NCBI GenBank assembly: GCA_036277075.1
Contig: DASUNQ010000108.1
Span: forward strand, 1-49,325
Direction of reading: 5' to 3'
DNA: 49,325 nucleotides
Source of the DNA: Thermoanaerobaculia bacterium
GTDB taxonomy: Bacteria > Acidobacteriota > Thermoanaerobaculia > Multivoradales > UBA5704
Below the pieces are notes generated by a model. The model saw nothing but the letters and a program-made list of their open reading frames with translations, did not search any database and was not told the origin of the DNA. A program made the translations under genes and the position numbers. The first letter of the stretch is position 1; every line of letters begins with the position of its first letter. Below are positions 3,807 through 37,694 of this stretch, in pieces.

Positions 3807-4185
3807 AGACGAGCCACTCGCCGATCGCCGTGAACTCGCGCGGCGAGGACGAGCGGGCGCCGGGGAGCACGTCGCCGAGGAGGAAGAGGAGCCCCGCGGC
3901 GGCGGTGAAGCGCTCCGGGGCCGCCGAGCAGCGTCCGGGGCAGAGGTCGGCGACCAGCCGCGTTCCCTCGGCCGTGCCGTCGCTGCGCCAGAGCTCGTTG
4001 CCGAAAAAGCCGTCATCGCCTCGGAAGTAGAGCAACCCGCCGAGCGGCGCCGCGTCGTGCAGGAGGTCGGGGAGCGAGGAGCCCAGCGCGGGGCCGGTGC
4101 GGATGTCCTTGACCAGGACCGGCTGCGCGGACAGCGCCGAGGCCCCGAGAGTGAGAGCGAGCGCGAGGAGGGGGGGCTTTCGCAT
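3700..4185 (-). CDS. Secreted ELWxxDGT-repeat protein
   Basis: Signal peptide MRKPPLLALALTLGASALSAQ. NELWRSDGTAEGT matches the ELWxxDGT repeat signature. Confidence 0.6.
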   Translation of the reverse strand: MRKPPLLALALTLGASALSAQPVLVKDIRTGPALGSSLPDLLHDAAPLGGLLYFRGDDGFFGNELWRSDGTAEGTRLVADLCPGRCSAAPERFTAAAGLLFLLGDVLPGARSSSPREFTAIGEWLVFNAGRPLAGYELFRLPRTALAVPDVGIASLRAATR

Positions 4186-4204
4186 GCTGCTAGGGTTCTA
4201 TGAC

Positions 4205-4800
4205 ATGAAACGCCTGTCAACTCTGGTGGTCGCGTTGCTCGCCGCCGGCGCCGGGGTGAACGGCTCGGCGCCGCCCGGCGGGACGGCCGCGGCCGCGCCG
4301 CCGCGGCTCGTCGTCCTCGGCACCGCGCAGGACGGCGGCCTGCCGCACGTCGCCTGCACCTGCGTCCGCTGCGAACGGGCACGGCGCGAGCCGGGATTCC
4401 GGCGTCGCGTCGCGAGCTTGGCGCTCCACTTGCCGGGGCGCGCAGAGGTCTACCTGCTCGACGCGACGCCGGACGTCGGCGAGCAGCTCGACGCCGTGGC
4501 GCGGCTCCGCGGCCGGCCCCCATCGGGACGTGTCGATCGCGCTCCGATCGACGGTGTGTTCCTGACCCACGCCCACGTCGGTCACTACCTCGGGCTCGCC
4601 GCCTTCGGTTTCGAGACCGTCCACACCCGCGCGCTGCCGGTCTGGGCCTCGGCGCGCATGGCCGAGTTCCTGCGCGGCAACGGCCCCTGGAGCCAGCTCG
4701 TCAGGCTCGAGAACGTCGAGCTGCGCGCGCTGAAGGCCGGCGAGGCGGTGACGCTGGGGGACGGGGTCTCGATCACGCCGCTTCAGGTGCCGCATCGGGA
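4205..4800 (+). pseudogene. 5' part of a PqqB-like MBL-fold hydrolase gene interrupted by the island
   Basis: MKRLSTLVVALLAAGAG signal peptide, [11 protein letters not shown] and THAHVGHYLG motifs. Similarity to the intact paralogue at 5282..6238 stops exactly after ...LQVPHRD at 4800; the frame then runs 16 unrelated codons to TAA 4847-4849. Confidence 0.85.
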
Positions 4801-4819
4801 TTGTTGCGGTACCTTTCTG
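4799..4819 (+). other. attL junction: core GA (4799-4800) plus island arm TTGTTG-CGGTACCTTTCTG
   Basis: Defined by the break in the host gene. The arm is the near-perfect inverted partner of 39166-39178. Confidence 0.7.
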
Positions 4820-5003
4820 CCGGATCGCGCTGCGAGCCTCCAGACCTAAGCGGCCCGGCTACCCGTCTTCGCCAGGGACGATCGGGGAGCACCTCAAGCG
4901 GCACCGACTGGACCTTGGCCTACGGCAAGCGGAGGTTGCCAGGAGGCTTGGCGTCAAGATTGGGACGCTCAGACTCTGGGAGGGTGGGTGGAACCGCGTC
5001 TCA

Positions 5004-5246
5004 GTGCGCTACCTGCCTGCGATCGCGGCGTTTCTTGGGTACGACCCTGCGCCGGAGGTGACTTCGCTCGGCCTACGCATCCGAGCGGCGCGTCGCCGTC
5101 TGGGCCTCTCTCAGAAGAAACTTGCGCGGCACTTCGGGATGGATCCGAAGACCGTGCAGCAGTGGGAGGCAGGGAGAATCAGTCGCAGGACCCGCAGAGT
5201 CGAAGTACTCCTTGAGGGCTTCGTGAAGTCGGCCTTGGGGGAGTGA
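5004..5246 (+). CDS. XRE-family HTH protein (second of two tandem HTH domains; the frame is open from 4803)
   Basis: LGLRIRAARRRLGLSQKKLARHFGMDPKTVQQWEAG is an HTH_3-type helix-turn-helix. The same frame upstream (4869-5003) encodes a first HTH, IGEHLKRHRLDLGLRQAEVARRLGVKIGTLRLWEGG, with no ATG/GTG/TTG before GTG 5004. Confidence 0.7.
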   Translation: MRYLPAIAAFLGYDPAPEVTSLGLRIRAARRRLGLSQKKLARHFGMDPKTVQQWEAGRISRRTRRVEVLLEGFVKSALGE

Positions 5247-5281
5247 CTGCCCATCAGTCCTCCTTCGCTACGATTTGCGCC

Positions 5282-6238
5282 ATGAAGACAATCGTCCTGA
5301 CGGCGCTCGTTCTCGCCTCGGCCGTATCCATCGCGGCCAATCCTCAGACGTCTCCCGGCCCTCGGGTGGTGGTGTTGGGAACTGCACAGGACGGGGGCAT
5401 CCCCCACGCTGGCTGCACGCATAGCCTCTGCGAGGCGGCCCGCAAGGACCGCTCACTCGCTCGGCACGTCGCCAGTCTCGCGATCCACCTTCCGAAGAGC
5501 GGCTACATGTACCTCGTGGACGCCACACCGGACCTGCCGGAGCAGATTGAAGAGATCCACGAGTTCCGCAGGTACCCCGAGGGGAGAGTAGACCGCGCAC
5601 CGATGGACGGGGTACTCCTCACCCATGCCCACATCGGCCACTATCTCGGGCTGGCCCACCTCGGCTTCGAGAGCCTCAACACCAATGGCATTCCGGTTTA
5701 CGCATCGCCGCGCATGGCCGCGTTCCTGCGTGGTAGCGGTCCCTGGAGCCAGCTCGTCCGGCTCGGCAACATCACTCTTCGGGAGCTTGAGCCTGGGAAG
5801 CCGGTTGAGCTGGAGGAAGGGGTCTCTGTCGAACCGATCCAAGTCCCCCATCGTGACGAGTATTCCGACACGATGGGGTTTTTCATTCGTGGGCCGAGAA
5901 GGACCCTCCTCTATGTGCCGGACACTGACTCCTGGCGCACCTGGTCTCGGCCGCTTCGGCAGGTCATCGAGGAGAAGCGCGTGGACATCGCTCTTCTGGA
6001 TGGCACCTTCTACTCTCCAGATGAGCTGCCAGACCGCGACGTCACCAAGATCAAGCACCCGCTCATCACCGAGTCGATGGATCTCCTGGAGCCTCTCGTT
6101 ACCGCCGGAAAGCTCTGGGTTCACTTCACCCACCTTAACCACTCAAATCCCGCGCTGGACCACGATGGGCCAGCTAGGAAGACGATCGAGGGACGGGGGT
6201 TTCGGGTGCTAGAGGAGGGAGAGGAGTTCGGTCTCTAG
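5282..6238 (+). CDS. PqqB-like MBL-fold hydrolase, intact island-borne paralogue of the disrupted target gene
   Basis: ORF 5243..6238. ATG 5282 gives [16 protein letters not shown], paralleling the host MKRLSTLVVALL. Collinear with both host fragments, including [44 protein letters not shown]. Confidence 0.85.
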
Positions 6239-6329
6239 AAGAGCTGGAGCGCAGCCGTCCGCGTTTGGAGCGTTAGTGCCGTCATACGACGACGCTCTTG
6301 GCCGGTGCCGGAGCACGTACTCACGGATC

Positions 6330-6455
6330 GCAGCTTCGGTTCCCATCCGGGCAGGACTCGGCAAGCCGGTCGCCGGCAAAGCCCCATACGGCTACCGCTG
6401 GCAGGACAAGAGCCGGCTCGTCCCTGACCCGAACGAGGCGCCAGTTCTCAAGCTT
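6330..6455 (+). pseudogene. Internal fragment of a large serine recombinase
   Basis: [42 protein letters not shown] aligns with [41 protein letters not shown] of the LSR at 37695. There is no catalytic domain upstream and no zinc ribbon downstream. Confidence 0.6.
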
Positions 6456-8558: not shown

Positions 8559-9532
8559 TCCCGGGAGTCCTCAGTGGGCGCCCGCAGTAGCCGAAGAAGC
8601 CCGGCCGTTGATAATCTCTGCGGGCAACTGAGCGCAAGGACAAGAGCGGAGGCCCACCGCGTCTTTTCGGGCGCGCGCAATCCGCATTGATATGGAATGA
8701 CCGCGTTCTTCAAACGATACAACAACGCTCCTCCAATTGCCGCTGCAAAAAGCGCGTCCTCAGGTAGGGGGCGGTAGCATTGGTACCCTGCAAGAAAATC
8801 CGAATGCAGTTCGCCGAGACTCGCCCCCACCGCACCACCATGAAGCAGAATATGCGCCGCCGCATACCCGATTTCCAGCAGACGGCTGCCGAAGTGGGCA
8901 TTGTCGAAATCGACAAACCCAACGTTACCTTCGGCACAAAGCATTATATTCTTTGGCGAGCAGTCCCCAAAGACGAACGCGCGCGGCCCTACCCGAGTAG
9001 ACGCCACAAGTCCGTCTAATCCCGGAAGCTTTTGGTAAAGCAGTTTCAGCCGCAGTTCGCGTTCAAAGAACGGCTCCTCGCCAGCCCCAGAGATAAACTC
9101 GTCAGTGGCGGAGTGAATCAATCCCAACAATGATCCAATCGATTGAGCTATGCCGGCGGGCATTACCCCACGTGTCATGATCGTCCGGGCCAGCGAAAAT
9201 CCTGCGACGCCAACCTCTGTAGCAACCATATGACGACCGAGCGTGTCAGCGTAAAGGAGGTTTGGCACGCGACCTTGTAGGTCTGGGATGCTACTGAGCA
9301 GGCGGAGAGCTGCCACTTCGCGCTCAATTGTCCCTCGTTCGCACGCGAGCGAGGGAAGACGAGCGTAGGTATCGCCGCGAATCTTTACGATGACGCGTCG
9401 CAGGCCGTCCAATGTTGTTGCCAGGTATACGAAGTGCACGAGTCCTCCCGCCAACCTACGAACATGTGCTGCTGATTGGAATACCTCCTCAGCAATTTGC
9501 CTTGCCTCAAGAAGCCGTCTATCTTTGCTCAT
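8555..9532 (-). CDS. APH/MtnK-like small-molecule kinase
   Basis: Catalytic-loop-like FGDCSPKNIML and Mg-binding-like GFVDFDNAHFGSRLLEIGY. 4-nt overlap with the downstream Ldh2 gene. Confidence 0.7.
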   Translation of the reverse strand: MSKDRRLLEARQIAEEVFQSAAHVRRLAGGLVHFVYLATTLDGLRRVIVKIRGDTYARLPSLACERGTIEREVAALRLLSSIPDLQGRVPNLLYADTLGRHMVATEVGVAGFSLARTIMTRGVMPAGIAQSIGSLLGLIHSATDEFISGAGEEPFFERELRLKLLYQKLPGLDGLVASTRVGPRAFVFGDCSPKNIMLCAEGNVGFVDFDNAHFGSRLLEIGYAAAHILLHGGAVGASLGELHSDFLAGYQCYRPLPEDALFAAAIGGALLYRLKNAVIPYQCGLRAPEKTRWASALVLALSCPQRLSTAGLLRLLRAPTEDSRE

Positions 9533-9538
9533 TTTCGG

Positions 9539-10972
9539 CTAGAGAGCTACTCTGCGGGAATGACTCCGTTTACCCTCGTTCCGGCTAGGATCCTCGGCTT
9601 CCTGCGCTAAGAGCTCATAGCACGCCGCATAGAGCCGATGCGTTAGCTCCTGTGATTCAATCGGGACAGGAAGACTAATCGCCTCTGCCTCCGTCACGAC
9701 GCCGGCCAACATCTTTATAAACTCCTCGACAAGCCGCTTTGGCGTCGTGGTCTCCGCTTCGTATGCGTCAGCGAAGAGAAGCTCTTCATAAGGTGGATTA
9801 GATAACATCGGATGTACCCATCGCTCGTATCTGATTGCTTGCTGCCCAAGCGCTACATCATTTTTAAGCAAGCGAATGCTCTGGCACGGTCCTTGATGTA
9901 GGTCGATGACGATCTGCGACATCCGTCCACCCTTTAGGTGGGCCCCAGGATTGGCGACGCTCGGACTTGGCCGGATAGTGCGCGCCGTATAGGAGGTGCG
10001 ATTGAAGGTATACGTGACGAGACCTAATGGCTTAAGCGCCTCGTCGAGCAAGTGCATCACAATTAGAAAATCTAACTCGGCGGCAGCAACGTTCTGCGGC
10101 AAAGCTTGATCGTGTCCGCTCTCAACTCGAAGGAGTTGGAAGAGCGGTCCGCTTGCGCCACTCGCGAGACAGTCCGCGACTCTGCAAACGTACGGACACT
10201 CGATCAAAAGAGTGGTGATGGCGCCCGGAGCAAGAGACAGGAACCACGCAATGACGTCTAGATAGTGATAGCTGGAAAATGATAGGGATCCACAGCCGTC
10301 AAGAAAGCCGTGAGCGCCTGAGGAACGATATTCGTCCGAAGTGAAGTGAACTCCCCCGGATACCGCGACGTTCAGGGACCGTACTGGGGCGCGTGTCGCA
10401 CCATACACAGAGGCGATCGCCGACGCGGCGAGAGCAAAGGGCGCGAGGTTACGCCGCCGAAGAAGCGTGGCGGCACGGAAGTGGTTATTGCGCGCGCGAG
10501 CACCCCTGATTAGATCCAATAAGATGGTGAAGCGAGTGCTGATTTCGTTGGCTGCTGCGAGTTGAGAGGAGCAATTCTCGACGACCACGATGGGTTTGTC
10601 GCAAAGGAAGGAGACTGCATTCCGCGCCGCCCAGCTACAGTAGGTGAAATGGGCTATCGGGTCAGTGCAGACGATGAGGAGATCAAGATGATGTGTGGCG
10701 TGCACACTATCAAGTTGCGCCAAAGCCTCGCTGATACCGTGACGTGCATCAACAAACGTCGGGCGGTGCACTGCAATCATCTGTTCGACTTGAGAGTGCC
10801 CGCGAGCTGCCGCGATGGCTAACGGGTCGCTAAGTTCGGCGATCGCGACTACGCGGAGGGGAATACCGGCAGCAGCGAGCTCATTGATAGCGGGCGCATG
10901 GCAGCGCTCTCCCCAGACGCCGGCAGCTCCAGCGATGGCGATGTTGAAGCGGGGCAGATAGCCAGGATGCAT
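9539..10972 (-). CDS. Gfo/Idh/MocA-like NAD(P)-dependent oxidoreductase
   Basis: N-terminal Rossmann segment FNIAIAGAAGVWG and the family-typical CDKP (EKP-like) motif. Long C-terminal alpha/beta domain. Confidence 0.65.
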   Translation of the reverse strand: MHPGYLPRFNIAIAGAAGVWGERCHAPAINELAAAGIPLRVVAIAELSDPLAIAAARGHSQVEQMIAVHRPTFVDARHGISEALAQLDSVHATHHLDLLIVCTDPIAHFTYCSWAARNAVSFLCDKPIVVVENCSSQLAAANEISTRFTILLDLIRGARARNNHFRAATLLRRRNLAPFALAASAIASVYGATRAPVRSLNVAVSGGVHFTSDEYRSSGAHGFLDGCGSLSFSSYHYLDVIAWFLSLAPGAITTLLIECPYVCRVADCLASGASGPLFQLLRVESGHDQALPQNVAAAELDFLIVMHLLDEALKPLGLVTYTFNRTSYTARTIRPSPSVANPGAHLKGGRMSQIVIDLHQGPCQSIRLLKNDVALGQQAIRYERWVHPMLSNPPYEELLFADAYEAETTTPKRLVEEFIKMLAGVVTEAEAISLPVPIESQELTHRLYAACYELLAQEAEDPSRNEGKRSHSRRVAL

Positions 10973-12353: not shown

Positions 12354-14717
12354 ATGCCTGCCTCTGACTGCAACCTATCGTTTGAGGGGGCGCTGGCCCG
12401 CGTCGTATTGCGGGACGGCCTTGAGCGGGTCCGCCTCTGTCCTCCCGATCTGGTACTGGCCGATCTCGCTCGCCGTCTTGCTCTCTCTCAAGGCTCGGCT
12501 GTGCTCGCACGCGTGGAGATCCCGCGAGGCGCTCACGATCTCGCTGTGGCGCTCGCAATGGAGGCCCAACTGGCACGCCTGCGGGACCGCAACGAGGCCC
12601 GCTCGACAGCCGTGACGGGCTCCATCATCGTCGTCGGTACTGATACGGCAGTTCAAGCCCGACTCGGCAAGGTCTCGGTTCAGGGAATCTCGCTCGACAA
12701 AGGCCTCCGCGTGGGTCGGATTCGGGGCGACGGTCGCATCGTTCTGCCTGGTTGCGATCCCCTAAGGTTCCAGCCAGGGCGAGGCGCGCTCTTGTACCTC
12801 AACACGCGTGTCGGCTGGCCTCGCCTGCCGGGCGAGCGGGACGGTCTCGTGTTGATCGACCGGACTTCGTTCGCCGCTCTTGACCTCCTAGACGGGGCGC
12901 TTCGATGGGCACGGGAGCACGGCGCACGGCACATCCTCGTGCTCCATGACCAAGGGGACATGGAAGCACGACAGCCTGCCGACCTGGCATGGACCCTTGA
13001 CTGCGCCACGCTTGCGGCTCTAGACGCGCCGGCCTGGGCGGTCCGTGATCGCCTGCCTGCATCCGGTCTTACTCTTATACGGCTCGTGGCAGGGCAAGCT
13101 CCCAGGATAGGCATCGCGCACGTTGGTGCGTCGGTTATCGAGACGTTATCTTCCTCGATTCACGGGCATATTGTCGCCGCGCGGCGAATTGCTAACCGGC
13201 TGCCGTACCCGCTCTTTGCCGCTGCGCGTTTGCTCGGGACCGCCAACGCGCTAGGAGGGCAGGTGAGGACGCACGATCAAACAGCCGCGCTCATGCCCCG
13301 CGCCCAACCACTGGGTGACCTCGCGCGCGCTGTGGAAGGTGGCCACAATCGCCTTGAGGGCTCCTGGGCCGGGTACCGGGAGACTCGCTATGCGGCTCTC
13401 CAAGCCGATGTCACACGCCTTTTCTCTGCACTGGACGTGGCAAATCCAAAATTCGAGGCTTTGGTGTTTCTGCTCGACGACTTGCGCCGCAGGCAGATCC
13501 CGCCGGCTGTAGTGGTCCGGGCGTCGGATGATGCTGCCGCATTAGCCCTCGAGGAAGATCTGTTCGAGTTCGATGCTGATCTGGCCGAGGGGGTCCATGT
13601 TGTGTCCTTGCGCCAGCGTCTCCCCTGGGCGGCCAACGGGATCGTTGAGGTCCTTACCGGTCTACCGCCGCCTTGGCGGCGGGACGCGCTCTGGTCAGGT
13701 GAGGCCCGGGAGCGGATCGTCGTCGCATACGGTTGGGAGGCCGCCGTGCTGCAGCGTGTTGCTGAGGAGGAGTCGGCGCGGGTTCGCGACCGAATACCGC
13801 CAGCCCTCGCCGTCACCGCTTCGTCCGTCACTAGGCCAACGTCCATACCGACCGTGTTTCGGCGCGAGCAGCGGGCGACGCCCGGCGACGCTACATTTCG
13901 CACTTTCGATCTCGACCTCACCGAGGTCATCGGTGACTTGGAGCCGGAACCCTACGTGGCGGTGCGAACCGATTCCCGCGGGAGGAGCACATGGCCGGTC
14001 CTGGTCCGTCCAGTGACGCTCTCGCCTGATGGAGCAGTCTGGTTGGTACCGGAGGAGGTGGATGTCGAGGTCCTGCTCGGCGACAGGTTTCGTCATCTGC
14101 GCGCGGCTCACCTGAAGCACGGAGACAACGTAATCGTCCCGCGTGGCTCCGGGCGTGAATCGCTCTTCGCTCGTGCGCTCGCGGTGGTCAAGGGGCAAGG
14201 GGCATACGTTGACGTCGAATTCATACTCGGCCGCTGGAGACGGGCTTGTCGCGCGCTGCTCAAGAAGGCTGGAACACCTCAACGAGCTCGGCGCATGCTC
14301 ACCGATGAGAGCGCGACAACATCCACGCAGCTAGAGGCATGGGCCGACGGCACAACGCTGGCGCCCAATGACTGTGAGGACATGGCCAGAGTCGCACGCC
14401 TCGCCGGGGACGAGTGGCTCCTTCAAAACTGGAAACGGGTGGCCACGCTGGTCCGGCAGGTCCGTGGCAGCCACATCAGCCTCGGTCATACGATCTCAGG
14501 CGCTATGCGTGAGACGGTTGCTGGCCGCGGGCCGAATCTCGACAGGTTGGCCGATCTGCTCGGCGTGGATGCCGCGGCGATCCTCGACGAGTTTGACGCG
14601 CGTATCGTCGAGTCTGTCTCTGATCCGATCTGTGTTCCGGCCGCCGTGGCGGGCGCGGTCGTTCCAGCCGGCTCGTTGCTGGTCAACATCTGCGAAATCG
14701 AACCAGGGGGCCCATAG
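12354..14717 (+). CDS. Large uncharacterised protein, first gene of the DISARM-like operon
   Basis: 787-aa ORF with coding-like composition. Its stop TAG (14715-14717) abuts the ATG of the helicase gene (TAGATG). I recognised no Walker A, PLD or methylase motif. Confidence 0.7.
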   Translation: MPASDCNLSFEGALARVVLRDGLERVRLCPPDLVLADLARRLALSQGSAVLARVEIPRGAHDLAVALAMEAQLARLRDRNEARSTAVTGSIIVVGTDTAVQARLGKVSVQGISLDKGLRVGRIRGDGRIVLPGCDPLRFQPGRGALLYLNTRVGWPRLPGERDGLVLIDRTSFAALDLLDGALRWAREHGARHILVLHDQGDMEARQPADLAWTLDCATLAALDAPAWAVRDRLPASGLTLIRLVAGQAPRIGIAHVGASVIETLSSSIHGHIVAARRIANRLPYPLFAAARLLGTANALGGQVRTHDQTAALMPRAQPLGDLARAVEGGHNRLEGSWAGYRETRYAALQADVTRLFSALDVANPKFEALVFLLDDLRRRQIPPAVVVRASDDAAALALEEDLFEFDADLAEGVHVVSLRQRLPWAANGIVEVLTGLPPPWRRDALWSGEARERIVVAYGWEAAVLQRVAEEESARVRDRIPPALAVTASSVTRPTSIPTVFRREQRATPGDATFRTFDLDLTEVIGDLEPEPYVAVRTDSRGRSTWPVLVRPVTLSPDGAVWLVPEEVDVEVLLGDRFRHLRAAHLKHGDNVIVPRGSGRESLFARALAVVKGQGAYVDVEFILGRWRRACRALLKKAGTPQRARRMLTDESATTSTQLEAWADGTTLAPNDCEDMARVARLAGDEWLLQNWKRVATLVRQVRGSHISLGHTISGAMRETVAGRGPNLDRLADLLGVDAAAILDEFDARIVESVSDPICVPAAVAGAVVPAGSLLVNICEIEPGGP

Positions 14718-17700
14718 ATGTCCTCGATAGTCATCCCTCGAGCCGTCCCACCGATAGCGTCAGCACTCATCTCAGACGTTGTGGGGCAGGGCCAGCAAAA
14801 CAGGCTTGAGTGCTCGGTTCTCAGGGCTATTATCGCTCGTGTAGTTGAACGGCTGAGTAACCGTGCGGGTGAGCGGATGGCACCCCCATGGAATCCCGTT
14901 CAGCAGGTCCGGATCGGGGTACTGCGACCAGTCGAGGCTGACGAGGCCCGCGGCGCAGTTGACGGCTCAAGGATAGGTATCGACTTCGTCGCTCGCAGCA
15001 CCGAAGGCATCGAGTTACTAGACCTGGAGATCGATGTCTCCTTCGCGCTGTACCAGCCTCTCTGGCCCACACGCCTGGAGGTTCTCGAGGCCGCTCGGCG
15101 CGAAGGCGATGAAGAAGCTGGTGTCGGCAGCACCGGAGCCGCTCAAGGACGACACGACCTTAGGCTCCCGATCACGGAGGCGTGGCAGCGCTCGAACGTC
15201 TTCGCTACTGGGTTGCGCCTTGGGGTTCCCGTAAATGGTACGCATGCGGGCCCCGAACTCGCCAACGCCTTGGATGCTGCCGTCCGCGACGCAGTGAGCG
15301 TCCATTTTGGGCGCTCTGATGCGGCGCGACCGTTTGCTTCACCTGGTCGAACGGTGCCGCTATCAGCCCTAAACACTGATGAACGCTATGCGGAGGCATT
15401 GCGTGCACGCGTCGATGGCGCGTGGATGCCCCAGATCCCGGCCGCGCGCCTTCACGCTTTCGTCGAGGAAATGCCCAACGGTAACCTTCTGGTCTCCGTG
15501 TCTCTCGTGAATCAGACGCAGCCCCGGGAGGGAGATCGTCTTCAGGATCTGAACTTGTATGACGCTCGGATAGAAGCACGAGTGGTCGCAGGCGGACATT
15601 TGGAGCCACAACGATTTCACCTCGCTCCCGACGACTACCGGCAGGAAGATCTTGCAGAAATTATAGGCCACGGTCGCGGCTGCGTGGCAATTTCTGCGGC
15701 CGACGACGGCGTTGCGACCGAGACACTTCCATTGCACATTCAACGAGTAGTGAGACACCGCACTGAGCACCTGCCAGAACTCAGTTGGAGCAAACTCGAC
15801 GACGATCCATTCCCGATCCTATCGCAGGTTGAAGACGCGATGCGAGCATACCTACGAGAATGGGACGCCTTTCTGCCTGGGCTCGGCCCCGAGGCTCGGC
15901 TCGCTTCGGAGCGAGATCGCAACGATTTCGACGCGGAGACGAGGCGATTTGCCGGCGGTCGTGCTCTCTTGGGTGATGATGCGGAGCTCCTACGGGCATT
16001 CCGGCTCGCGAACCGCGTCTTTGCGCGCGCTGGTGCGGCCCGTGGGCATACGTCGTGGCGGCCGTTCCAGCTGGTGTACCTCATTGAACACTTGGCGGCA
16101 GTGGCGGCGCGCCGTCACCGGCACCGAGCCGATCTTCTGGAGGAGCTAAAATCTGTTGATGTGCTTTGGTTCCCAACGGGCGGAGGGAAAACGGAAGCCT
16201 ATTTAGGACTGATTGTGGTCGCTCTCTTTTACGACCGGTTCCGCGGCAAGGATCGTGGTACCACGGCACTGCTGCGCTTCCCGCTCCGCATGCTCTCCGC
16301 GCAACAACTTGATCGCGTTCTCCGCGTGCTGACGGTAGCCGATGATGTGCGCCACGCCGAGCGGATCGCTGGTGCACCATTCGAGCTCGGGTACTTAGTC
16401 GGTGGTGGCAACACTCCGAATGCACTCCGATACGAACAGGGGTGGTGGCCGGGTATGGCGAACGCCGAGCGGCTGACAGAGAGCGATCGGCGCCGTCATC
16501 GGCTCATCGCCGGATGTCCATTCTGCGGCGCCAAAGACGCAGTGCGATTGGCGGCGGACGCGATCCGATACCGGCTCCTACATAAGTGTACAGCTTGCAA
16601 TGCGGAGTTGCCGCTTCATGTCAGCGACGACGAGGTCTACCGCTATCAGCCAGCCGTCATCGTGTCCACGGTTGACAAAGTCGTTGGCCTGGCCCACTTC
16701 GGGGAGTTCACTTCATTCGCGCATGGGCCCGCCGGTCGCTGTCCCGATCACGGATACTTTGTCTTCGGCGGCTGTGGGGCCGAGGGCTGCACCCGGGCAG
16801 TCCGGGAGCTAGAGCGCGTGACTGGCTGGCATGATCCCGTTCCGACGCTAGTCATCCAGGATGAACTACACCTCGTGGCCGAAGAGCTGGGTGTGTTCGC
16901 TGCCCACTTTGAGTCTCTTCTCGCCGAGATTCAGTGTGCTGGCCCGTCTGGGCTGCCACCGAAAATACTGGCTGCCAGCGCTACCATTGAGGGATTCGAC
17001 GATCAGGTTAGACAAGTGTACGGGCGACGCCCTCGCCGTTTCCCGTCGCCAGGTTTTGAGCGAAGATGGAGTTTTTACACACTCGAGACACCCGATGTTC
17101 GCCGTGCCTTCCTCGGCGTCATGCCGACCGGCGGCGGCACCAGCCGGGTCGAGATCGCGGGCCGCATCCAGGTGGAGCTTGTTCGTGCCGTGCAGGATCT
17201 CGAGGATGATCCGTCGCCACTGCGTATCGACGCGGAGGCCGCGCTGGGCCGTGTCCCTTTGGATGACGAGCTACGTACACTGCTCTTCGACTACGAAGTC
17301 TCGCTTGGGTATGTCAACCGCCGTGCGGATGGCGCTCGCATGTCGGATGACCTGCGTTCTCTCGACCGGCAGCTGGAGGCAGAGAGCCAGGACGGGCTCC
17401 GCCACGAGTTGCTGACGGGTGATGTCCCGATCACGGAACTCGCGTCCGCGATCGCCCAGATCGAGCACGCACGGCCGACTGATCTGCGGCGAGAGCGCCT
17501 CCGCGCTCTCGTTGGCACATCGGTCCTCTCCCATGGTGTCGACCTCGAACGGCTAAATCTCATGACGATGACTGGGATGCCGGCAACGATCGCTGACTAC
17601 ATCCAGTCAACGAGCCGAGCCGGGCGAGCCCACGCGGGCCTGGTCGTGACGGTCTTCGATCATTTCGCGCTCCGCGAAGCCTCTACGTTCTCGCATTTTC

Positions 17701-18170
17701 TCTCGACCCATCTCTTCCTGGATCGCCTGGTCGAGCAGGTACCTGTGAACAAGTACGCCCGCTTGGCTATCGATCGGACCCTTTCGACAATCGTAATGGC
17801 ATTGTTATGGGATCTCGCCCGCGATCCTTTGCTGCGAGCGCCATCCAATGGTATTCGCTACACGCGCGATTTTCGACCTTGGTGGATCAGTGGGGCGGCT
17901 GATATTCAGCCGCGCCTCGCGGAGCGCTTACGCCGCGCGCTCCGATCAGCGGTCCCCGAGGTGGCTGATAGCGGGCTCGAGGCCCGGCTGGTCCGTTGGG
18001 GTGAAGAGCGCTGGGAAAGGCACGAGCTTCCTTCGCTTCAGTCCTTCCGAAGCCGGCTCGTCAAGGACTGCTTTGCCATGCGCGTCCTGACGAGCCTACG
18101 GGACGTTGACGAACCGGCTACATTCGGTGCCGATTCCCGCCATGGGCCGGCCTTCGAGGCCCTTCGCTGA
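14718..18170 (+). CDS. drmA: DrmA-like SF2 DExH helicase
   Basis: Motif I FPTGGGKTEAYLG, motif II LVIQDELH, motif VI YIQSTSRAGR. It sits immediately upstream of a DUF1998 gene, the DISARM core arrangement. Confidence 0.8.
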   Translation: MSSIVIPRAVPPIASALISDVVGQGQQNRLECSVLRAIIARVVERLSNRAGERMAPPWNPVQQVRIGVLRPVEADEARGAVDGSRIGIDFVARSTEGIELLDLEIDVSFALYQPLWPTRLEVLEAARREGDEEAGVGSTGAAQGRHDLRLPITEAWQRSNVFATGLRLGVPVNGTHAGPELANALDAAVRDAVSVHFGRSDAARPFASPGRTVPLSALNTDERYAEALRARVDGAWMPQIPAARLHAFVEEMPNGNLLVSVSLVNQTQPREGDRLQDLNLYDARIEARVVAGGHLEPQRFHLAPDDYRQEDLAEIIGHGRGCVAISAADDGVATETLPLHIQRVVRHRTEHLPELSWSKLDDDPFPILSQVEDAMRAYLREWDAFLPGLGPEARLASERDRNDFDAETRRFAGGRALLGDDAELLRAFRLANRVFARAGAARGHTSWRPFQLVYLIEHLAAVAARRHRHRADLLEELKSVDVLWFPTGGGKTEAYLGLIVVALFYDRFRGKDRGTTALLRFPLRMLSAQQLDRVLRVLTVADDVRHAERIAGAPFELGYLVGGGNTPNALRYEQGWWPGMANAERLTESDRRRHRLIAGCPFCGAKDAVRLAADAIRYRLLHKCTACNAELPLHVSDDEVYRYQPAVIVSTVDKVVGLAHFGEFTSFAHGPAGRCPDHGYFVFGGCGAEGCTRAVRELERVTGWHDPVPTLVIQDELHLVAEELGVFAAHFESLLAEIQCAGPSGLPPKILAASATIEGFDDQVRQVYGRRPRRFPSPGFERRWSFYTLETPDVRRAFLGVMPTGGGTSRVEIAGRIQVELVRAVQDLEDDPSPLRIDAEAALGRVPLDDELRTLLFDYEVSLGYVNRRADGARMSDDLRSLDRQLEAESQDGLRHELLTGDVPITELASAIAQIEHARPTDLRRERLRALVGTSVLSHGVDLERLNLMTMTGMPATIADYIQSTSRAGRAHAGLVVTVFDHFALREASTFSHFLSTHLFLDRLVEQVPVNKYARLAIDRTLSTIVMALLWDLARDPLLRAPSNGIRYTRDFRPWWISGAADIQPRLAERLRRALRSAVPEVADSGLEARLVRWGEERWERHELPSLQSFRSRLVKDCFAMRVLTSLRDVDEPATFGADSRHGPAFEALR

Positions 18171-18186
18171 CCTGGGAGAGGAAGTT

Positions 18187-20001
18187 ATGCAGCGAAGCCG
18201 ATCGCAAGTCATCTTCCGCCACCTACCCGGGGCGGTCTTTCACCACGACGAAGGACCCATCGTTCGAACGACGTTCGTTGACGGAACGCGGCTCGGTCCC
18301 GTTATCAACAAGGCTGTTCTTCTCGAGGAGGTCGATCGTCACTTGGAGCAATGGCCTGACGAACACCTGGCTGGGATCGTCCGACCATCTCGTGTTTCGG
18401 AGCGAGACTTCGTCGTCATAGAGCCAGAAGCTGTCTACTTCGAGGTCTGGCCGCTCCTTCTGCATTGTGAGGGGCGGTGCGGGCGGGCACGCCGCTACTT
18501 CCGACCTAGCCAACTCAGTGCCGATGTCGACGCTAACGGCCGTATTTCCTGCCACCATTGTGGGGGTCGTATGCGTCAACTCCGGTACTACGCGTGCCAT
18601 CAATGCGGGCGGTCGGAGCCCATGTTCACGCCGAAGTGCGACGCTTGCAATAGCTATGAGGACGTGGTCCTCGAGGACACTGGTTCATTCGAGACGTCGT
18701 ACTGGCGCTGCATACGGCACGGTTACCTCCGCGGCACTCGGTTCACGCCGTGCGACTGTGGAGAATTTCTGGCGGAGGGAAGCCATGGCCCCGCTTTTAT
18801 GCGGGCCTTTACGACACGTGACGCCCGGACGTACTATCCACACACAGTTACGTTTCTCAATCCGAAGTCGGCTGTTTACGACCGATTCCAAGTGCATCCG
18901 GCGCGCGCTCGTGTGGCACTGGCCTCCTATCTGGGCGAGGTGTCGAGTCTTCAGCGCGGCATGGAGCAAATCGATGGCGGGCGCGCCGGTAGTCGCTACA
19001 CGCCAGATGAATGGCAGCAGGCATGTAAGACTATTTACGCCGGGCTATCGCCAGAGGATCTGGAGATCATCCGTGATCGACGCGGCCCTGTGATAACAGG
19101 AGTCTTCGGCGCGCCCGATCCGGACCTTGCGCAGCGGCGCCTTGCCGAGACACGCGCGGTGCTAGAGCGCGCGGCTGTACACGATCAAGATCTTGTCGCC
19201 CGACGCACGCTGGAAGACGCCCGACAGGAGGCGGCGAGCCGGGGTGTCGTTTCGGAGGAGGGCCGGCTTTCCGAGACAGAGCGCTACGCCCGGCGCATGG
19301 GTATCGCCGCGGTCTCAGTGACTACGGCCTTTCCGGTCGCTCTTGCGGCCTACGGCTATACGAGAGTCCGTCGGGAGCCGGGCGAGTCTATCCTGCAGGG
19401 GTTTGATCGCCGACGTTACGGGAACCAGTATCCGATTTTCGCGGTGCCGACTGATACCGAAGCGCTGATCGTGACGCTTGCCGCCCGTGATGTGCTGGGC
19501 TGGCTTCGGGACGAGCACGATGGCGCGGGACCGGTACCAGTCGACGAGAAGGATGCCCGTCTCCAGGTCTTCTCGCTATTCGCAGCGGGTGCACAGGAGA
19601 TTGAGCCGGTAGGTACTCTAGTCCACTCCGTCTCGCACGCGCTGCTCCGATCGCTGGCCGACGGTAGAAGTGGCTTCGGCGAATCATCTCTCGCCGAGTG
19701 GCTCTCCCCCGCAACACTTACCTTCGGGATCTACGTCGCGACATTCCATTCGCACACGCTGGGTGCGCTCTGGACAGTGCTCCACCACTCCTGTCAGGAG
19801 TGGCTTGCTGGTGCTATCGATGGCGTGTGGACGTGCGACAACGACCCTCTCTGTCATCAGCGGCAGCCCCGAGCGTGTGAAAGATGCCTTTATCTCACCT
19901 TCGGTTGCCCGGACTTCAATGAAGACCTCTCGCGGACCGCGCCGATGAGCTTCTGGCGCGGTACAGCGAGGCGAGCGGATGCTTCGTCGGCGACGACCTG
20001 A
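18187..20001 (+). CDS. drmB: DUF1998 zinc-binding protein, DrmB-like
   Basis: ORF 18106..20001. ATG 18187 follows GGGAGAGGAAG and lies 17 nt after the helicase stop. Cys clusters CHHCGGRMRQLRYYACHQCG and the C-terminal CDNDPLCHQRQPRACERCLYLTFGCPDFNEDLSR match the DUF1998 signature. Confidence 0.8.
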   Translation: MQRSRSQVIFRHLPGAVFHHDEGPIVRTTFVDGTRLGPVINKAVLLEEVDRHLEQWPDEHLAGIVRPSRVSERDFVVIEPEAVYFEVWPLLLHCEGRCGRARRYFRPSQLSADVDANGRISCHHCGGRMRQLRYYACHQCGRSEPMFTPKCDACNSYEDVVLEDTGSFETSYWRCIRHGYLRGTRFTPCDCGEFLAEGSHGPAFMRAFTTRDARTYYPHTVTFLNPKSAVYDRFQVHPARARVALASYLGEVSSLQRGMEQIDGGRAGSRYTPDEWQQACKTIYAGLSPEDLEIIRDRRGPVITGVFGAPDPDLAQRRLAETRAVLERAAVHDQDLVARRTLEDARQEAASRGVVSEEGRLSETERYARRMGIAAVSVTTAFPVALAAYGYTRVRREPGESILQGFDRRRYGNQYPIFAVPTDTEALIVTLAARDVLGWLRDEHDGAGPVPVDEKDARLQVFSLFAAGAQEIEPVGTLVHSVSHALLRSLADGRSGFGESSLAEWLSPATLTFGIYVATFHSHTLGALWTVLHHSCQEWLAGAIDGVWTCDNDPLCHQRQPRACERCLYLTFGCPDFNEDLSRTAPMSFWRGTARRADASSATT

Positions 20002-20010
20002 CTCTTGGCC

Positions 20011-21969
20011 ATGCGAGACCGTCGCCGGATCTGCACTATGAGCCAGACTCCGGAACCTTTGACCGCCGGCGTGATTTTGGGTCTGGGCAGTCCGCTTCGG
20101 CACCTAGATATCTCGGCAGTTTCCGCGGCAGCAACGAATGAGGTTGGGCGACGGGAGCGACATCTGCCGACCGTGTCGGTCTTCCGTTGGTGGGCACGAC
20201 GCACATCCGCTGTCTCGGGTGCGGTACTCGATGCGGTCGCTCGCGACCTCGGCCCGCGCCTCCGGGTCGCCGATCCGTTCGCCGGCGGCGGGACCGTAGC
20301 GCTGCAAGCCCTTCTTCGCGGTCATTGGGTTCACGCGCAGGACATCGATCCGTGGGCGGCGGAAGGAATCGCGGCGGCGCTCAGTCTTCCGGCTCCGGAG
20401 GCGATCCATGCTGCGGGTGACCGCTTACGCTCGGCCGTCGCGGGGCTTCTCGATCGCGCCTATGGCACTTCCTTTGACGGCGGCGCTAGCGCATGGATTA
20501 CCCATACCCTCCGTGTAGCCGTGGGAACGTGCCCTCGATGCGACAACGAAGCTCGGCTCTTCCCATATGCGACCCTTTCCCGATTCCAACGGGTGGAAGC
20601 GGTGGGCAAGGACGAGCGCGCGTGGCTAGCGTGCCGGTACGGGCACGTTCACGGGGGTGTCCTGAATCAGCTTCGCAGCTGTCCCGAATGCAGTGACCGG
20701 GTTGATCCGGCCGCTGTCTACACTTCTGGCCGCCAGTTTGCGTGTCACGCTTGCGGTCAGACGGCGACACTCGCCTTATGGGCCCGAGACGGCTTTCGAT
20801 GGGAAGTGGTCTTGGTCGAGAGGGCGGATGGGGTCCGGCGCGAGATCTCAATTCCGCGAAGCGACGAGATCCAACGCGCCGAGTCCGACTGGATGCCCTG
20901 TCGCGAACTTCCACAAATTGAAGCGGGAAGAGAAAGCACCGTTCTGCTCCGACATGGCTTCCGGCACTGGCACGACCTCTATCCACGGCGCCAGCGGGTC
21001 ATCCTTGAGGCGGTCTTCGCTGCGATCCCAGAGGCTGCTGCGGGAGATCCGACCTTAGTGCGCCTACTCCATATAGTCGTTGCTGGTGCCGCGGAGATGG
21101 CCGGTCACATGTCCCGATGGGATCGGCGATACCTCAAAGCATATGAAGCGATGGCTGGGCACAGGTTTAATCTGACTACGCTCGCGGCCGAGCCGAACGT
21201 CTGGGGCGTTGGACGGCGTGGGCGAGGGAGCATCTCACTCCGTATCGCAGCGGCGAAGCGAGCTGCTGAATGGCTCACTGCCTCTCGGTCGCCGATCGCC
21301 CTAGCGGGCCCCTTCAGCACGAGCGCCGATCGAGCCGCTGCCGACGCGGTCGATGCAGTAGTTGTCCATGGTTCCTCCGAGCGTATGCCGCTTCTCGATG
21401 GCTCGGTCGACCTTATCTGGACAGATCCGCCCTACCACGACGACGTGCAGTATCACGATCTCTCAGCACTATTCCGTGTGTGGCTTGGCCTCTGCAGCGT
21501 GGATAGCGAGGCCTCGGCCGTGGCGTCCGGTCCAACGGATAAGCGGTACGTCCAGGTGCTACGGCGCGTCTTCGCTGAGTGCCGACGGGTGCTCGCACCC
21601 CACGGTCGCCTCCTGCTCACCTACGCCAACAGGGACTCAACCGCCTGGATCGCGCTTTACGAAGCACTTCGTGATGCCGGGTTCCGTGCTCAGGGCTATG
21701 AGATCGTTCGTTCAGATGCGGAAACCGACTTCACAAAACGCCGCGGTCGGACCTGCAGCATGGATCTTGTTCTCGATCTGGTGCCCGCAGGCAACAACTC
21801 CGCTCAGCTCATCCACCGGCCCGCGTGCTCGCCAGCGTCTGGGGAAGGCGCTTTTCTAGCTGTTAGGGGTGAAGTGGCTCTTACGGCCATCTCCGACGTA
21901 CCGCCCGTGGGCTGGCGCGAGCGGCTACGAAGTGAGCAGACCGACCACTGGTCTCAGAAACCGCGATGA
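20011..21969 (+). CDS. N6-adenine DNA methyltransferase with Zn-ribbon inserts (COG1743/DUF1156-like)
   Basis: FRWWARRTS (DUF1156-like WWARR), AdoMet motif VADPFAGGGT, Zn ribbons CPRCDN...CPECSD...CHACG, catalytic LIWTDPPYHDD. Start ambiguous (TTG 20005, ATG 20011, ATG 20038). Confidence 0.8.
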   Translation: MRDRRRICTMSQTPEPLTAGVILGLGSPLRHLDISAVSAAATNEVGRRERHLPTVSVFRWWARRTSAVSGAVLDAVARDLGPRLRVADPFAGGGTVALQALLRGHWVHAQDIDPWAAEGIAAALSLPAPEAIHAAGDRLRSAVAGLLDRAYGTSFDGGASAWITHTLRVAVGTCPRCDNEARLFPYATLSRFQRVEAVGKDERAWLACRYGHVHGGVLNQLRSCPECSDRVDPAAVYTSGRQFACHACGQTATLALWARDGFRWEVVLVERADGVRREISIPRSDEIQRAESDWMPCRELPQIEAGRESTVLLRHGFRHWHDLYPRRQRVILEAVFAAIPEAAAGDPTLVRLLHIVVAGAAEMAGHMSRWDRRYLKAYEAMAGHRFNLTTLAAEPNVWGVGRRGRGSISLRIAAAKRAAEWLTASRSPIALAGPFSTSADRAAADAVDAVVVHGSSERMPLLDGSVDLIWTDPPYHDDVQYHDLSALFRVWLGLCSVDSEASAVASGPTDKRYVQVLRRVFAECRRVLAPHGRLLLTYANRDSTAWIALYEALRDAGFRAQGYEIVRSDAETDFTKRRGRTCSMDLVLDLVPAGNNSAQLIHRPACSPASGEGAFLAVRGEVALTAISDVPPVGWRERLRSEQTDHWSQKPR

Positions 21970-22060: not shown

Positions 22061-23650
22061 CTACGACTGGTCACTGGTATCCTGGCGTAGAGCGAATGCA
22101 GAATTCTGCTTGATCCAGCTTTCGATCTCTTCAATGATGTGTCTCAACGCAGATTCTCTTTGCGAACTTGCCGACTGCGGCAGGTTTGTACCGCTTCGAC
22201 CTTCGGCCCGTTGAAGGTCACTAGGAGTATTTTTCGCATAGTCAGTGAGCGATACAAAGGGACGAAACAGCTCAACAGAGAGGTTTTTGCCGGTCACGAT
22301 ACGGTTCGACGTCGCAAGCTGGGCAAGTGCGCGTTTGTGGTCGGCTGTCGCCGTCTCGTAGCTTAACCAGGCCGCGTTTGCCAGTTCGACCACTTCTCGC
22401 ACCTCTTCCAGCTTCTTTTCGGCCTCGCTGCTTGGAAGTGCGAGCTTCTCTTCAAGGTCTCGCCGTTCAAGGTATAGGCTCGCCTTGCTCTTTTCGAGGA
22501 GTTCCTTCTCCAGCATGCCGTCGAGGTACGCGTCGACGAGGCGGTCAAGCAGGGATTGGATCTGTCCGAGCCGCAGGCGCCGCGCCTCTTGCTGCTCTTC
22601 CCATTCGCTGAGGAACCCCGCGCGCCGCTCTTCCATTCGCTGGAACAGGTACGCTAGTTGGTCGCTTGAGAGCATGAGGCGCCGAAGCTCTCGCTGGATA
22701 GTCTCATCCACGGCTTCTTCGCGCACGCACTTCGTCGGACATCCCTGAGTGTGGCAGCGGTAGTAGACGTGTCCCTTCTGGAGCTCGCCGCGGAGTAGCC
22801 TGCCGCAGTGGCCGCAGGAGAGCAAGCGCCGGAAGACGAATTCGTGTCGGATCACTTTCCGGTGCGTTCGCCCCTGGAGGCGATCCTGCACACGTCGAAA
22901 CAGAGCGACCGGAATGAGCGGCCGGTGTATGCCCGGGAACGTCTCGCCCGTCTTGCGCAAGCTGATGAGGCCGCAGTAGAAGGAATTGTTGAGGATAGTC
23001 GAGAGACCGTTGCGCGTCACCTTGTGTCGGTTGCGGTTCCGCAAGCCTCGCCGGTACATCTCGTCGGCGAGCGCCAGGAGGCTGAATTGGCCGGAGTCGT
23101 ACAGCTCGAATGTCTTTCGCACGTGCGGGGCGGTGTTTGCATCAGGCACCTTCGGCTTGCCCTTCCCGCAGTCGAGGTAGCCGAGCGGCGCCTGGAGCGG
23201 GTAGAGCCCCTGCTTCAGGCGTCCGTAGAAACCCTTGAGCGTTTCCTCCCGCAGGTTGCGGATGAAGTCCGCGGCGACAATGGCCTGAATGTCGGCAGCG
23301 AGCCGGCCGCCACGAGTATGGAGGTCAAGCGACTCGTTCACGAAGTGGACCGCAATCCCAGCGTCGATGAGCTCGCCGAGGTCTGCCCAGTCGCGGAGAT
23401 TCCTGGCGCTCCGGTCGATCTTGTGGATGACGAGCCCCTGTGCTTTACCCTGGCGCAACAGCCGGAGCATCTTGGTGAACTTTGGTCGGCCTCGCTTTGC
23501 GGCCGTCTTTGTCTCCTCGAACCACTCGATGATGGAGAGCCCATGGGTCCCGGCGTAGCGCGCGATGGCATCGTGCTGCTCCTCAGGCGACACGCCCTCT
23601 TCCTTCTGCTTGGGCGTTGAGACACGTATGTATGCGAAGCAACGCGTCAT
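22061..23650 (-). CDS. Large serine recombinase (second copy, divergent from the terminal one)
   Basis: N-terminal resolvase motif AYIRVSTPKQ, IHKIDRSARN, recombinase domain, zinc ribbon CGHCGRLLRGELQKGHVYYRCHTQGC, then a coiled-coil segment. Confidence 0.9.
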   Translation of the reverse strand: MTRCFAYIRVSTPKQKEEGVSPEEQHDAIARYAGTHGLSIIEWFEETKTAAKRGRPKFTKMLRLLRQGKAQGLVIHKIDRSARNLRDWADLGELIDAGIAVHFVNESLDLHTRGGRLAADIQAIVAADFIRNLREETLKGFYGRLKQGLYPLQAPLGYLDCGKGKPKVPDANTAPHVRKTFELYDSGQFSLLALADEMYRRGLRNRNRHKVTRNGLSTILNNSFYCGLISLRKTGETFPGIHRPLIPVALFRRVQDRLQGRTHRKVIRHEFVFRRLLSCGHCGRLLRGELQKGHVYYRCHTQGCPTKCVREEAVDETIQRELRRLMLSSDQLAYLFQRMEERRAGFLSEWEEQQEARRLRLGQIQSLLDRLVDAYLDGMLEKELLEKSKASLYLERRDLEEKLALPSSEAEKKLEEVREVVELANAAWLSYETATADHKRALAQLATSNRIVTGKNLSVELFRPFVSLTDYAKNTPSDLQRAEGRSGTNLPQSASSQRESALRHIIEEIESWIKQNSAFALRQDTSDQS

Positions 23651-26945: not shown

Positions 26946-27077
26946 CGGAAAGTAGCCTGCGATCCCTAGTGCCTTGGAGAGGGCACGTAAAGCTTCCCCG
27001 GCACAACCGAGGGAGCTTTGGCGCGCGTCAGGAAACGCCGCCTTTGCGGCAATCAGGAGTACGCGCACGATGGGCGA

Positions 27078-37561: not shown

Positions 37562-37694
37562 AGAGCGGGTAGCCTCCCCGGCAGATTCCTCCGCCTTGAG
37601 CGCCTGTCACCTGGCGAGTACTGTGGCTGCAGAGTCGTTCTTCGCATCCCACCAACAACCCGCCGTGGTATACGGCAGCTACAGAGAGGAGCCA

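Follow-up and report, generated by a model that had tools for sequence, protein, structure and literature searches.

A genomic island whose own attachment site very probably lies inside the gene for its integrase was found in a 49,325-nucleotide (nt) stretch of DNA from a Thermoanaerobaculia bacterium (contig DASUNQ010000108.1, positions 1 to 49,325, hereafter the window). The sequence features of the left part of the window are those expected at the left end of a conjugative-type genomic island in its integrated state, and the integrase encoded at the opposite end has those of a large serine recombinase (LSR). In the architecture proposed, attP falls in the linker between the LSR core and a tail of two helix-turn-helix (HTH) domains, so that core and tail would be parted on integration and rejoined on excision. 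In the circular form, the whole gene would encode an LSR-linker-(HTH)2 protein of 645 amino acids (aa), and this full-length protein would be the form acting on attP when the element has just been excised or transferred. Recombination of attP with attB at the central GA, within a PqqB-like host gene, would part the core from the tail, leaving the core at attR with a meaningless host-encoded tail and the linker with both HTH domains about 34 kb off at attL, with no canonical start. Excision would rebuild the fusion. The parting and rejoining of the gene are borne out by its sequence and by the comparison of relatives.

Junctions, rebuilt attachment site and joined gene

The insertion spans 34.4 kb (4801-39186), with a GC content of 61% inside versus 73% in both flanks. 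At attL (4778-4821, + strand), the junction reads ...catcggga followed by TTGTTGCGGTACCTTTCTGC, and the site comprises a host half-site, the central GA (4799-4800), the spacer half ATTGTT (4800-4805) and the P' arm GCGGTACCTTTCTGC (4806-4820). At attR (39165-39207, + strand), where GCAGAAAGGGACCGTTCGCGGA is followed by cgagtac, the P arm GCAGAAAGGGACCGT (39165-39179) is joined to the spacer half TCGCGG (39180-39185), GA (39185-39186) and a host half-site. The attP rebuilt from these halves, GCAGAAAGGGACCGT-TCGCGGATTGTT-GCGGTACCTTTCTGC, has 15-nt inverted arms matching at 13 of 15 positions around a 12-nt spacer with a central GA, and its identity with the rebuilt attB is limited to GGA. Its anatomy is that of a typical LSR site. 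The joint predicted for the excised circle is GCAGAAAGGGACCGTTCGCGGATTGTTGCGGTACCTTTCTGC, and the predicted empty site contains CCGCATCGGGACGAGTACAGC. Symmetry in the rebuilt attP was observed from about 6 to 22 nt from the center on each side. Arm-type or extended sites for the tandem HTH domains around attP were considered and rejected, since none of the five rebuilt or intact sites checked showed symmetry past about 22 nt.

The LSR core ORF (open reading frame) lies at 37695-39186 (+ strand), begins at ATG 37695 with the Shine-Dalgarno sequence GAGAGGAG ahead of it, and encodes residues 1-497, ending on the first base of codon 498. Across the rebuilt attP, codon 498 takes its first base from 39186 and the remainder from 4801-4802, and the frame is then open through to 5246. 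This in-frame passage had been proposed in a first-pass annotation of the DNA and was verified: the 1492 nt of 37695-39186 and the 446 nt of 4801-5246 add up to 1938 nt, corresponding to 645 codons and a stop. The coordinates given there for the tail frame in the integrated state were also correct. This frame is open between TGA 4749-4751 and TGA 5244-5246, and ATG, GTG and TTG are absent from it ahead of GTG 5004; since no canonical start lies upstream, the first HTH domain (HTH1) is out of reach as a whole in the integrated state.

Pfam models matched the joined protein as Resolvase (residues 16-157, 5.7e-31), Recombinase (182-286, 5.3e-20), HTH_31 (525-581) and HTH_3 (591 onward). The LSR core consists of a catalytic domain with the RVST serine motif, within the stretch IWIRVSTEDQ, followed by a recombinase domain, a Cys4 zinc ribbon, a coiled coil and a closing beta-hairpin. 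The zinc-ribbon match was weak (0.066), and the four cysteines are present (FCHCG...VCYKC). In a PDB sequence search, the catalytic domain was matched to TP901-1 integrase (1.8e-19); this search ended short of the C-terminal half of the LSR, for which fold comparison was used. From the Resolvase and Recombinase domains, the zinc ribbon, the coiled coil and the form of attP, the enzyme is classified as an LSR.

The break falls after the last beta-hairpin of the LSR, and every core domain is kept in one ORF. In the integrated state, this ORF is 564 aa long, with 497 aa of LSR and 67 aa of out-of-frame host sequence (39187-39389, + strand) that substitutes for the linker and the two HTH domains. 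In this way, 148 aa of the fusion are exchanged for 67 host-derived aa in the window and for 9 aa in most relatives. The 564-aa integrated form was also found in another assembly (P0001, 98% identical).

The detached tail starts with a start-less linker coding segment (4800-4880, + strand; IVAVPFCRIALRASRPKRPGYPSSPGT), whose first codons are the attP arm. Two Cro/XRE-type domains follow: HTH1, a four-helix domain at 4881-5036 (+ strand; Pfam HTH_31, 4e-19), and HTH2 at 5067-5246 (+ strand; Pfam HTH_3, 4.9e-17), which ends with the stop TGA 5244-5246. Modeled alone with AlphaFold2, the tail gave two four-helix domains preceded by a 27-residue unstructured linker, with a mean pLDDT (predicted local distance difference test) of 90.5 and a pTM (predicted template modeling score) of 0.72. 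The helices were placed at tail residues 28-39, 43-50, 54-61 and 69-79 for HTH1, and at 90-100, 105-112, 116-124 and 132-146 for HTH2. According to helices 28-79, the position of HTH1 was corrected from 4869-5003, as first annotated, to about 4881-5036. Foldseek matches of the tail included 434 Cro, SinR, DdrO and ImmR domains, with a target-normalised TM-score of about 0.7 for the first three. By sequence and modeled fold, the tail corresponds to tandem Cro/C1 (XRE) HTH domains predicted to bind DNA. Within HTH1, helix 1 ends at CTG 4908 and helix 4 starts at GTG 5004. The product expected from GTG 5004 does have the 80 aa first assigned to it; since this codon is inside HTH1, its content would be helix 4 of HTH1 plus HTH2, and not a single HTH domain as had been stated.

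Fused and split relatives

When the rebuilt 645-aa protein was searched against 5.8 billion protein clusters, dozens of uninterrupted LSR-(HTH)2 fusions of 630-660 aa were obtained, 52-60% identical over 95-98% of the rebuilt sequence and with Resolvase, Recombinase and HTH_3/HTH_31 within a single ORF. The first-pass annotation had suggested looking in databases for LSRs with C-terminal tandem HTH_3 domains, and the outcome was positive. The linker of the fused homologues, ..A.GQRN.IPALPFC..L...KP....YP..L.TLGDHLRKRRLDL.. (QRNxIPALPFCxxLxxxKPxxxxYPxxLxTLGDHLRKRRLDL), aligns with window positions 4803-4907 (VAVPFCRIALRASRPKRPGYPSSPGTIGEHLKRHRLDL); therefore, the start-less stretch before HTH1 is homologous to coding sequence. 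Three of the fused genes (L001, L002 and L005) have an inverted repeat around a 12-nt spacer at the equivalent linker position, with arms matching at 13-14 of 15 positions in L002 and L005 and over a shorter core of 8-9 nt in L001. One such palindrome in a fused gene is GCAAATGGGCAACGC-AACCTCACCCCT-GCGTTGCCCTTTTGC.

The fused homologue P0013 was modeled with AlphaFold2 from a 60-sequence alignment. The model showed a confident LSR core, with helices at 348-447 and the closing beta-hairpin at 465-479, and the core matched the structures of the SPbeta, phiC31 and LI integrases with E values from 2e-19 to 4e-10. The pLDDT was below 50 at residues 483-501, overlapping the attP-encoded AERQRSAMAALPSC (490-503), and past this segment a short strand (505-510) was followed by the two HTH domains. 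The attP-encoded linker is predicted to be disordered. RIALRA in the linker of the window matches the predicted beta-strand of the fused homologue. The conserved segment after attP, PFCxxxLxxxKP, forms a strand in the fused model and not in the tail modeled alone, which hints that it packs against the LSR core.

The closest LSRs, 75-79% identical and 499-518 aa long, all end in ...AER(C/D)RS(P/R) followed by TSTATPW.S and the stop. As in the window, the terminal TSTATPW(P/R)S is an out-of-frame reading of the host DEYSDT motif, and these LSRs therefore occupy the same insertion site in other genomes. In a further group (63-66% identical, about 500-510 aa), ...QRN(F/L) comes last before a different conserved junk tail, the sequence beyond the break being antisense to comM. 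Full-length homologues that always stop before the att core, the pattern named at the outset as speaking against a fusion, were not seen: in those stopping at the core, a junk tail of host origin sets in exactly at the crossover. The homologue comparison thus supports the earlier proposal that integration uncouples an LSR-(HTH)2 fusion into a tail-swapped LSR and an orphan.

The closest stand-alone tails (L008, L010 and L011) are arranged as a truncated gene of the metallo-beta-lactamase (MBL) fold, the orphan tail and then, in two of the three, a full-length MBL paralogue. For L008, the LSR end of the element (L092) is on the same 217-kb contig, about 28.6 kb apart, so that both ends of a second element are available. 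Its rebuilt attP is a perfect palindrome (15/15) with a central GA, and the in-frame junction reads AERCRSP followed by ICAAPFC. No convincing operator-like motif upstream of the LSR was common to the window and L092, and promoter and terminator scans of 4400-5400 and 37300-39500 in the window gave nothing useful. A TrwB/TraG-like coupling-protein gene always precedes the LSR: it was found directly upstream in the window, L001, L002, L083, L092 and L096, this pairing being kept throughout the family.

To estimate the extent of the family, GTDB was scanned with one genome per species, and 446 loci encoding a relative of the tail were found. Among the best 80 of these, 76 were orphans (open frame of 141-377 aa), three were fused to an LSR (L083 in Kerfeldbacteria, L031 in Saccharibacteria and L043 in Omnitrophota) and one was disrupted. 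Hosts of the tail loci belong to Acidobacteriota, Binatia, Planctomycetota, Bacteroidota, Verrucomicrobiota, Chloroflexota, Nitrospirota and others. Tails carry from 2 to about 6 HTH domains each, with three or more copies in some fused and orphan tails (L083 8411-10786; P0126, P0134 and P0149). A profile search over 1.84 billion representatives resulted in 981 clusters (50% identity) at E <= 1e-30, with unrelated poly-HTH proteins and orphans in the top ranks, which do not yield a fused-to-split ratio. The same search also drew proteins of 10-25 tandem XRE-type HTH repeats (P0148 with 4162 aa, P0150 with 1002 aa, P0157 and P0190), which are probably unrelated to the integrase family. The IMG/VR scan gave three related loci only, and therefore the family is not mainly viral; a metagenome scan with a single tail protein gave one weak locus only. 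The elements resemble islands of the conjugative or mobilisable kind more than phages, and hundreds of them across bacterial phyla appear, from sequence comparison, to share the attP-in-integrase design.

In most loci (L015-L091), the tail is flanked by comM (yifB) in antisense, broken at the codons of the CPCG motif. In these insertions, the 5' part of comM is next to the LSR end and its 3' part next to the tail end (e.g., L026 at about 9500-10010 and L096 at 4493-5575). With a comM clade and a PqqB-like clade, at least two target genes are used by the family. Since the junk tails of the main clade were T-loop-like, a tRNA or tmRNA target was also considered; it was discarded, as ARAGORN found 0 tRNA at 47 junctions and the flank is antisense comM. 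Two orphan tails 12 kb apart were observed on one Acidobacteriota contig (L018 and L019, CAWGNQ010000006.1), and on the Omnitrophota contig, a second tail (L043 6489-6866) lies 6 kb downstream of the fused gene. These paired tails may reflect tandem or successive insertions.

Selection on the tail and competing explanations

Selection was studied in seven orphan tails of the window's clade. Between the crossover and the M/L codon, a stretch of 36 codons, 0 indels and 0 stops were found. The ratio of nonsynonymous to synonymous polymorphism (pN/pS) was 0.33 for codons 8-36, which comprise the linker and HTH1 helix 1, and 0.37 for the rest of the tail; by part, it was 0.39 for linker codons 8-27 and 0.19 for helix 1. 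This purifying selection without indels indicates that a segment with no canonical start is kept as protein in exactly this frame.

Several observations weigh against a gene that is complete only in the circle. For the window alone, the chance of being in frame (1/3) with 27 stop-free codons (0.56) is about 0.19, and the chance of no canonical start across 68 open codons is about 0.09. The joint chance of frame continuity and missing start, roughly 0.02, is not negligible, and the case therefore rests on the comparative data. Both attP and attB of the window's element were rebuilt in silico from attL and attR. The window's own clade, the one inserted in the MBL-fold gene, yielded no fused protein; its fusion is deduced from the frame running on across the joint in two elements, from the selection seen on the linker and from the homology shared with fused forms. 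In metagenome-assembled genomes of Patescibacteria, unsplit LSR-HTH genes are located mid-contig on contigs of 143-302 kb (L002, L005 and L083; P0013, P0028 and P0101), and an intact attP-like palindrome is present in both of the fused loci checked there (L002 and L005). An unrecombined attP can therefore reside on large replicons and not only on a small free circle. The initial statement that the fusion exists only in the excised circle holds for the window and fails as a rule for the family, given these Patescibacteria contigs. The flanks of the Patescibacteria fused genes resemble a circularly permuted element, with one housekeeping gene within 10 kb in one case, while in genomes outside the candidate phyla radiation the LSR-HTH gene is almost always split.

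The remaining observations of this kind concern possible translation of the orphan. In-frame start candidates in the window are ATT 4800, ATC 4824, CTG 4830, CTG 4908 and GTG 5004. The codon equivalent to CTG 4908 is ATG in five of the seven close relatives, where gene callers place the start (MDLGL...), and an ATG is found at the junction codon in two of the seven (L010 and L014). In the comM clade, the L of ALPFC is encoded by TTG since the attP arm is GCGTTGCC; this TTG is present in most orphans, many of which are called from it. The orphan may be translated independently in the integrated state, to some extent.

Based on these codons, the two-HTH ORF could be taken as an independent island regulator (ImmR/CI-like) started at ATT 4800, ATC 4824, CTG 4908 or GTG 5004, the continuity with the integrase frame having little meaning. 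Besides the ATG codons of the relatives and the in-frame arm TTG of the comM clade, this explanation is favored by the stand-alone tails of 113-260 aa that gene callers give, and by the fact that XRE-type HTH proteins are the usual mobile-element repressors, with ImmR, CI and Cro among the Foldseek matches. However, initiation at codon 37 would cost HTH1 its helix 1, and initiation at GTG 5004 three of its four helices, whereas helix 1 and the upstream linker are constrained like the rest of the tail. The fused protein P0039 likewise has methionine at tail position 37, where most family members have leucine; the methionine looks like a polymorphism of a hydrophobic site, and its role as a dedicated internal start was downgraded. 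CTG 4830, which the first-pass annotation had named as a possible start, is not conserved as such because relatives have CTC or CTT. In addition, uninterrupted fusions are common, and no Shine-Dalgarno sequence or promoter was detected near 4800-5004. An independent regulator as the whole explanation was thus considered unlikely. It is compatible with the split gene, and both products could exist.

Another explanation accepts the fusion as real and takes the split as a tolerated by-product, attP having drifted into a disordered linker and the core alone being sufficient, with no regulatory consequence. The predicted disorder of the attP-encoded residues, the variable junk of 9-67 aa that forms the integrated-state tails and the retention of all canonical domains in the LSR core are in agreement with it. 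Against it, clades that target different genes (the MBL-fold gene and comM) share the arrangement, as do many phyla, the tail is never missing even though its HTH domains number from 2 to 6, and PFCxxxLxxxKP is conserved after attP, with its strand predicted in the fused model and not in the tail alone. This explanation was considered very improbable.

Least probable of all is a decaying, 5'-truncated pseudogene left by an old rearrangement or by island degeneration, with a frame match by chance in GC-rich DNA: open frames are indeed common at 61-73% GC (p = 0.56 for 27 stop-free codons and p = 1/3 for the frame) and the island carries other debris (the LSR fragment at 6312-6455), but purifying selection with 0 indels in the seven relatives, the orphan at the same position beside the same junction in independent genomes, full-length homology of the tail to fused proteins, a confident AlphaFold2 fold and disruption in only one or two of 80 loci largely refute it by selection and synteny.

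Host gene, island contents and known systems

The island interrupts a host gene for a PqqB-like protein of the MBL fold. Rejoining its 5' part (4097-4800, + strand) and its 3' part (39187-39562, + strand) restores a full protein of 359 aa, in which the motif at the joint is as in the element-borne paralogue. The rebuilt protein matched Pfam Lactamase_B_2 at 1.2e-26 and TIGR02108 PqqB at 4.6e-40, yet under the cut-off of the latter model. In the integrated state, the truncated host frame runs 16 codons into the element up to TAA 4847-4849. The stop at exactly 16 codons is shared by the window, L008, L010 and L011, and, as TAA or TGA, it overlaps the codons for the conserved R-P-(D/E/K) in the tail frame.

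A full-length paralogue of the disrupted gene (331 aa, 59% identical) is encoded at 5243-6238 (+ strand), with counterparts at 6381-7337 in L008 and 2939-3895 in L010; it is probably a replacement copy for the disrupted host gene. Its att-equivalent site differs from attB at synonymous positions, and these differences could protect it from self-targeting. Just past the paralogue, positions 6312-6455 hold part of a related LSR (62% identity with residues 144-190 of the island LSR), debris of an earlier element or rearrangement.

Regarding the cargo, a DISARM-like defence cluster was found at 12354-21969, with a DrmE C-terminal-domain protein, a 1150-aa DEAD/Helicase_C protein, a 631-aa unknown protein and a 654-aa methyltransferase. 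A second, distantly related LSR of 529 aa (Resolvase, Recombinase and Zn_ribbon_recom) is encoded at 22061-23650 on the - strand, and given its presence, the island may be composite or nested. Two genes for TrwB/TraG-like coupling proteins are located at 27018-28277 and 34544-37561, the latter (+ strand) encoding a 1005-aa type IV coupling protein with Pfam TrwB_AAD_bind, TraG-D_C and DUF87. Among the large ORFs scanned, Pfam recognised no relaxase or type IV secretion apparatus, and no phage structural genes were found in the Pfam scans of the island. No candidate for a recombination directionality factor (RDF) was identified in the island.

Full-text literature searches returned no description of an LSR coding sequence split by its own attP, nor of an LSR-tandem-XRE fusion. 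The first-pass annotation had pointed to the repressors of mycobacteriophages. In clusters G, N and P, Broussard et al. (2013) are said to have described attP within an HTH repressor gene, the viral and prophage products differing at the C-terminus; the integrase of that integration-dependent immunity system is reportedly a tyrosine recombinase, and the switch is reported to act through removal of a degradation tag. As here, attP is inside the gene for an HTH protein whose C-terminus is set by integration, but there the repressor gene is split and not the recombinase.

The nearest parallels in print, instead of this system or alongside it, are Mx8 IntP and the SSV-type integrases, both with attP inside int. 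SSV-type "suicidal" (type I) integrases (SSV1, pTN3 and pT26-2) are tyrosine recombinases with attP in the integrase ORF, "so far restricted to archaea", for which self-disruption of the gene has been proposed as a directionality control (PMC7253208). In both cases, the attP within the integrase ORF is translated and the gene parts end up at opposite ends of the element after integration. The SSV tyrosine enzyme, however, is broken into two pseudogenes without activity, whereas here the enzyme is a bacterial serine recombinase, its core stays intact and an accessory HTH module is detached. In Mx8 IntP/IntX, attP is in the 3' coding region of int, and integration results in a recombinant gene whose integrase is active with changed properties (PMC6070905). 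The position of attP in the 3' part of int and the swapped C-terminus are common to both systems; Mx8 differs in being a phage with a tyrosine integrase whose displaced C-terminus has no recognisable DNA-binding module, and it represents one phage group, in contrast with a serine family found across phyla.

Expression that depends on circularisation is also known. Examples are the promoter at the joint for TnpX of Tn4451, which is an LSR, Pcirc of ICEclc, P3'end of ICEKp1 and read-through in Tn916 (PMC13023037). The excised circle likewise gives an expression state absent from the integrated element; those cases are transcriptional, through a promoter formed at the joint or carried over it, whereas here the joint would assemble coding sequence.

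As for the consequences for the enzyme, modules fused to the C-terminus of LSRs can reverse or block directionality, and it has been suggested that the RDF site may be occluded by long C-terminal extensions that occur naturally (PMC12286644). Since published C-terminal fusions alter LSR directionality, an HTH tail present only on the circle could do likewise. Unlike the engineered integrase-RDF fusions or the natural extensions, which are artificial or fixed, here recombination itself would attach and detach the extension. Loss of the post-attP strand and of both HTH domains would alter the behaviour or regulation of the recombinase once integrated, for example as altered directionality or RDF sensitivity, or as loss of an autoregulatory or targeting DNA-binding function. 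On the circular form, the HTH domains might bias the enzyme to integration, abolish its response to an RDF or act as a regulator or targeting domain specific to that state. The tail as a fused RDF was thought unlikely on logic, as the fusion would be present just when integration, and not excision, is needed. We infer that fusion and core differ functionally, although each single functional reading of the tail is tentative, none of them being favored over the others taken together. A directionality or regulatory switch built into the gene structure is a possibility that is rather doubtful at present; in it, the fusion would be made by the circle alone and the bare core by the integrated element alone, with recombination or regulation differing between the two, for example, as an integration-proficient, RDF-insensitive fusion versus an excision-competent core. 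On such a functional reading, the integration state would be encoded in the protein itself.

For annotation, the split gene would mean that hundreds of start-poor "XRE-family regulators" and of "recombinases" of about 500 aa with odd tails are two halves of one gene, and that the paired halves mark island boundaries precisely, mostly in comM and here in the PqqB-like gene. It would also mean that the attP-inside-int principle, known from tyrosine recombinases of archaea and a myxophage, holds for bacterial serine recombinases as well. Serine integrases are prized for genome engineering because a separate factor sets their direction, and the addition or removal of a C-terminal module by recombination would be a new, self-contained way for the enzyme to differ between states. 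If the built-in switch were true, this family would be the serine counterpart of the archaeal "suicidal" integrases, reversible rather than suicidal.

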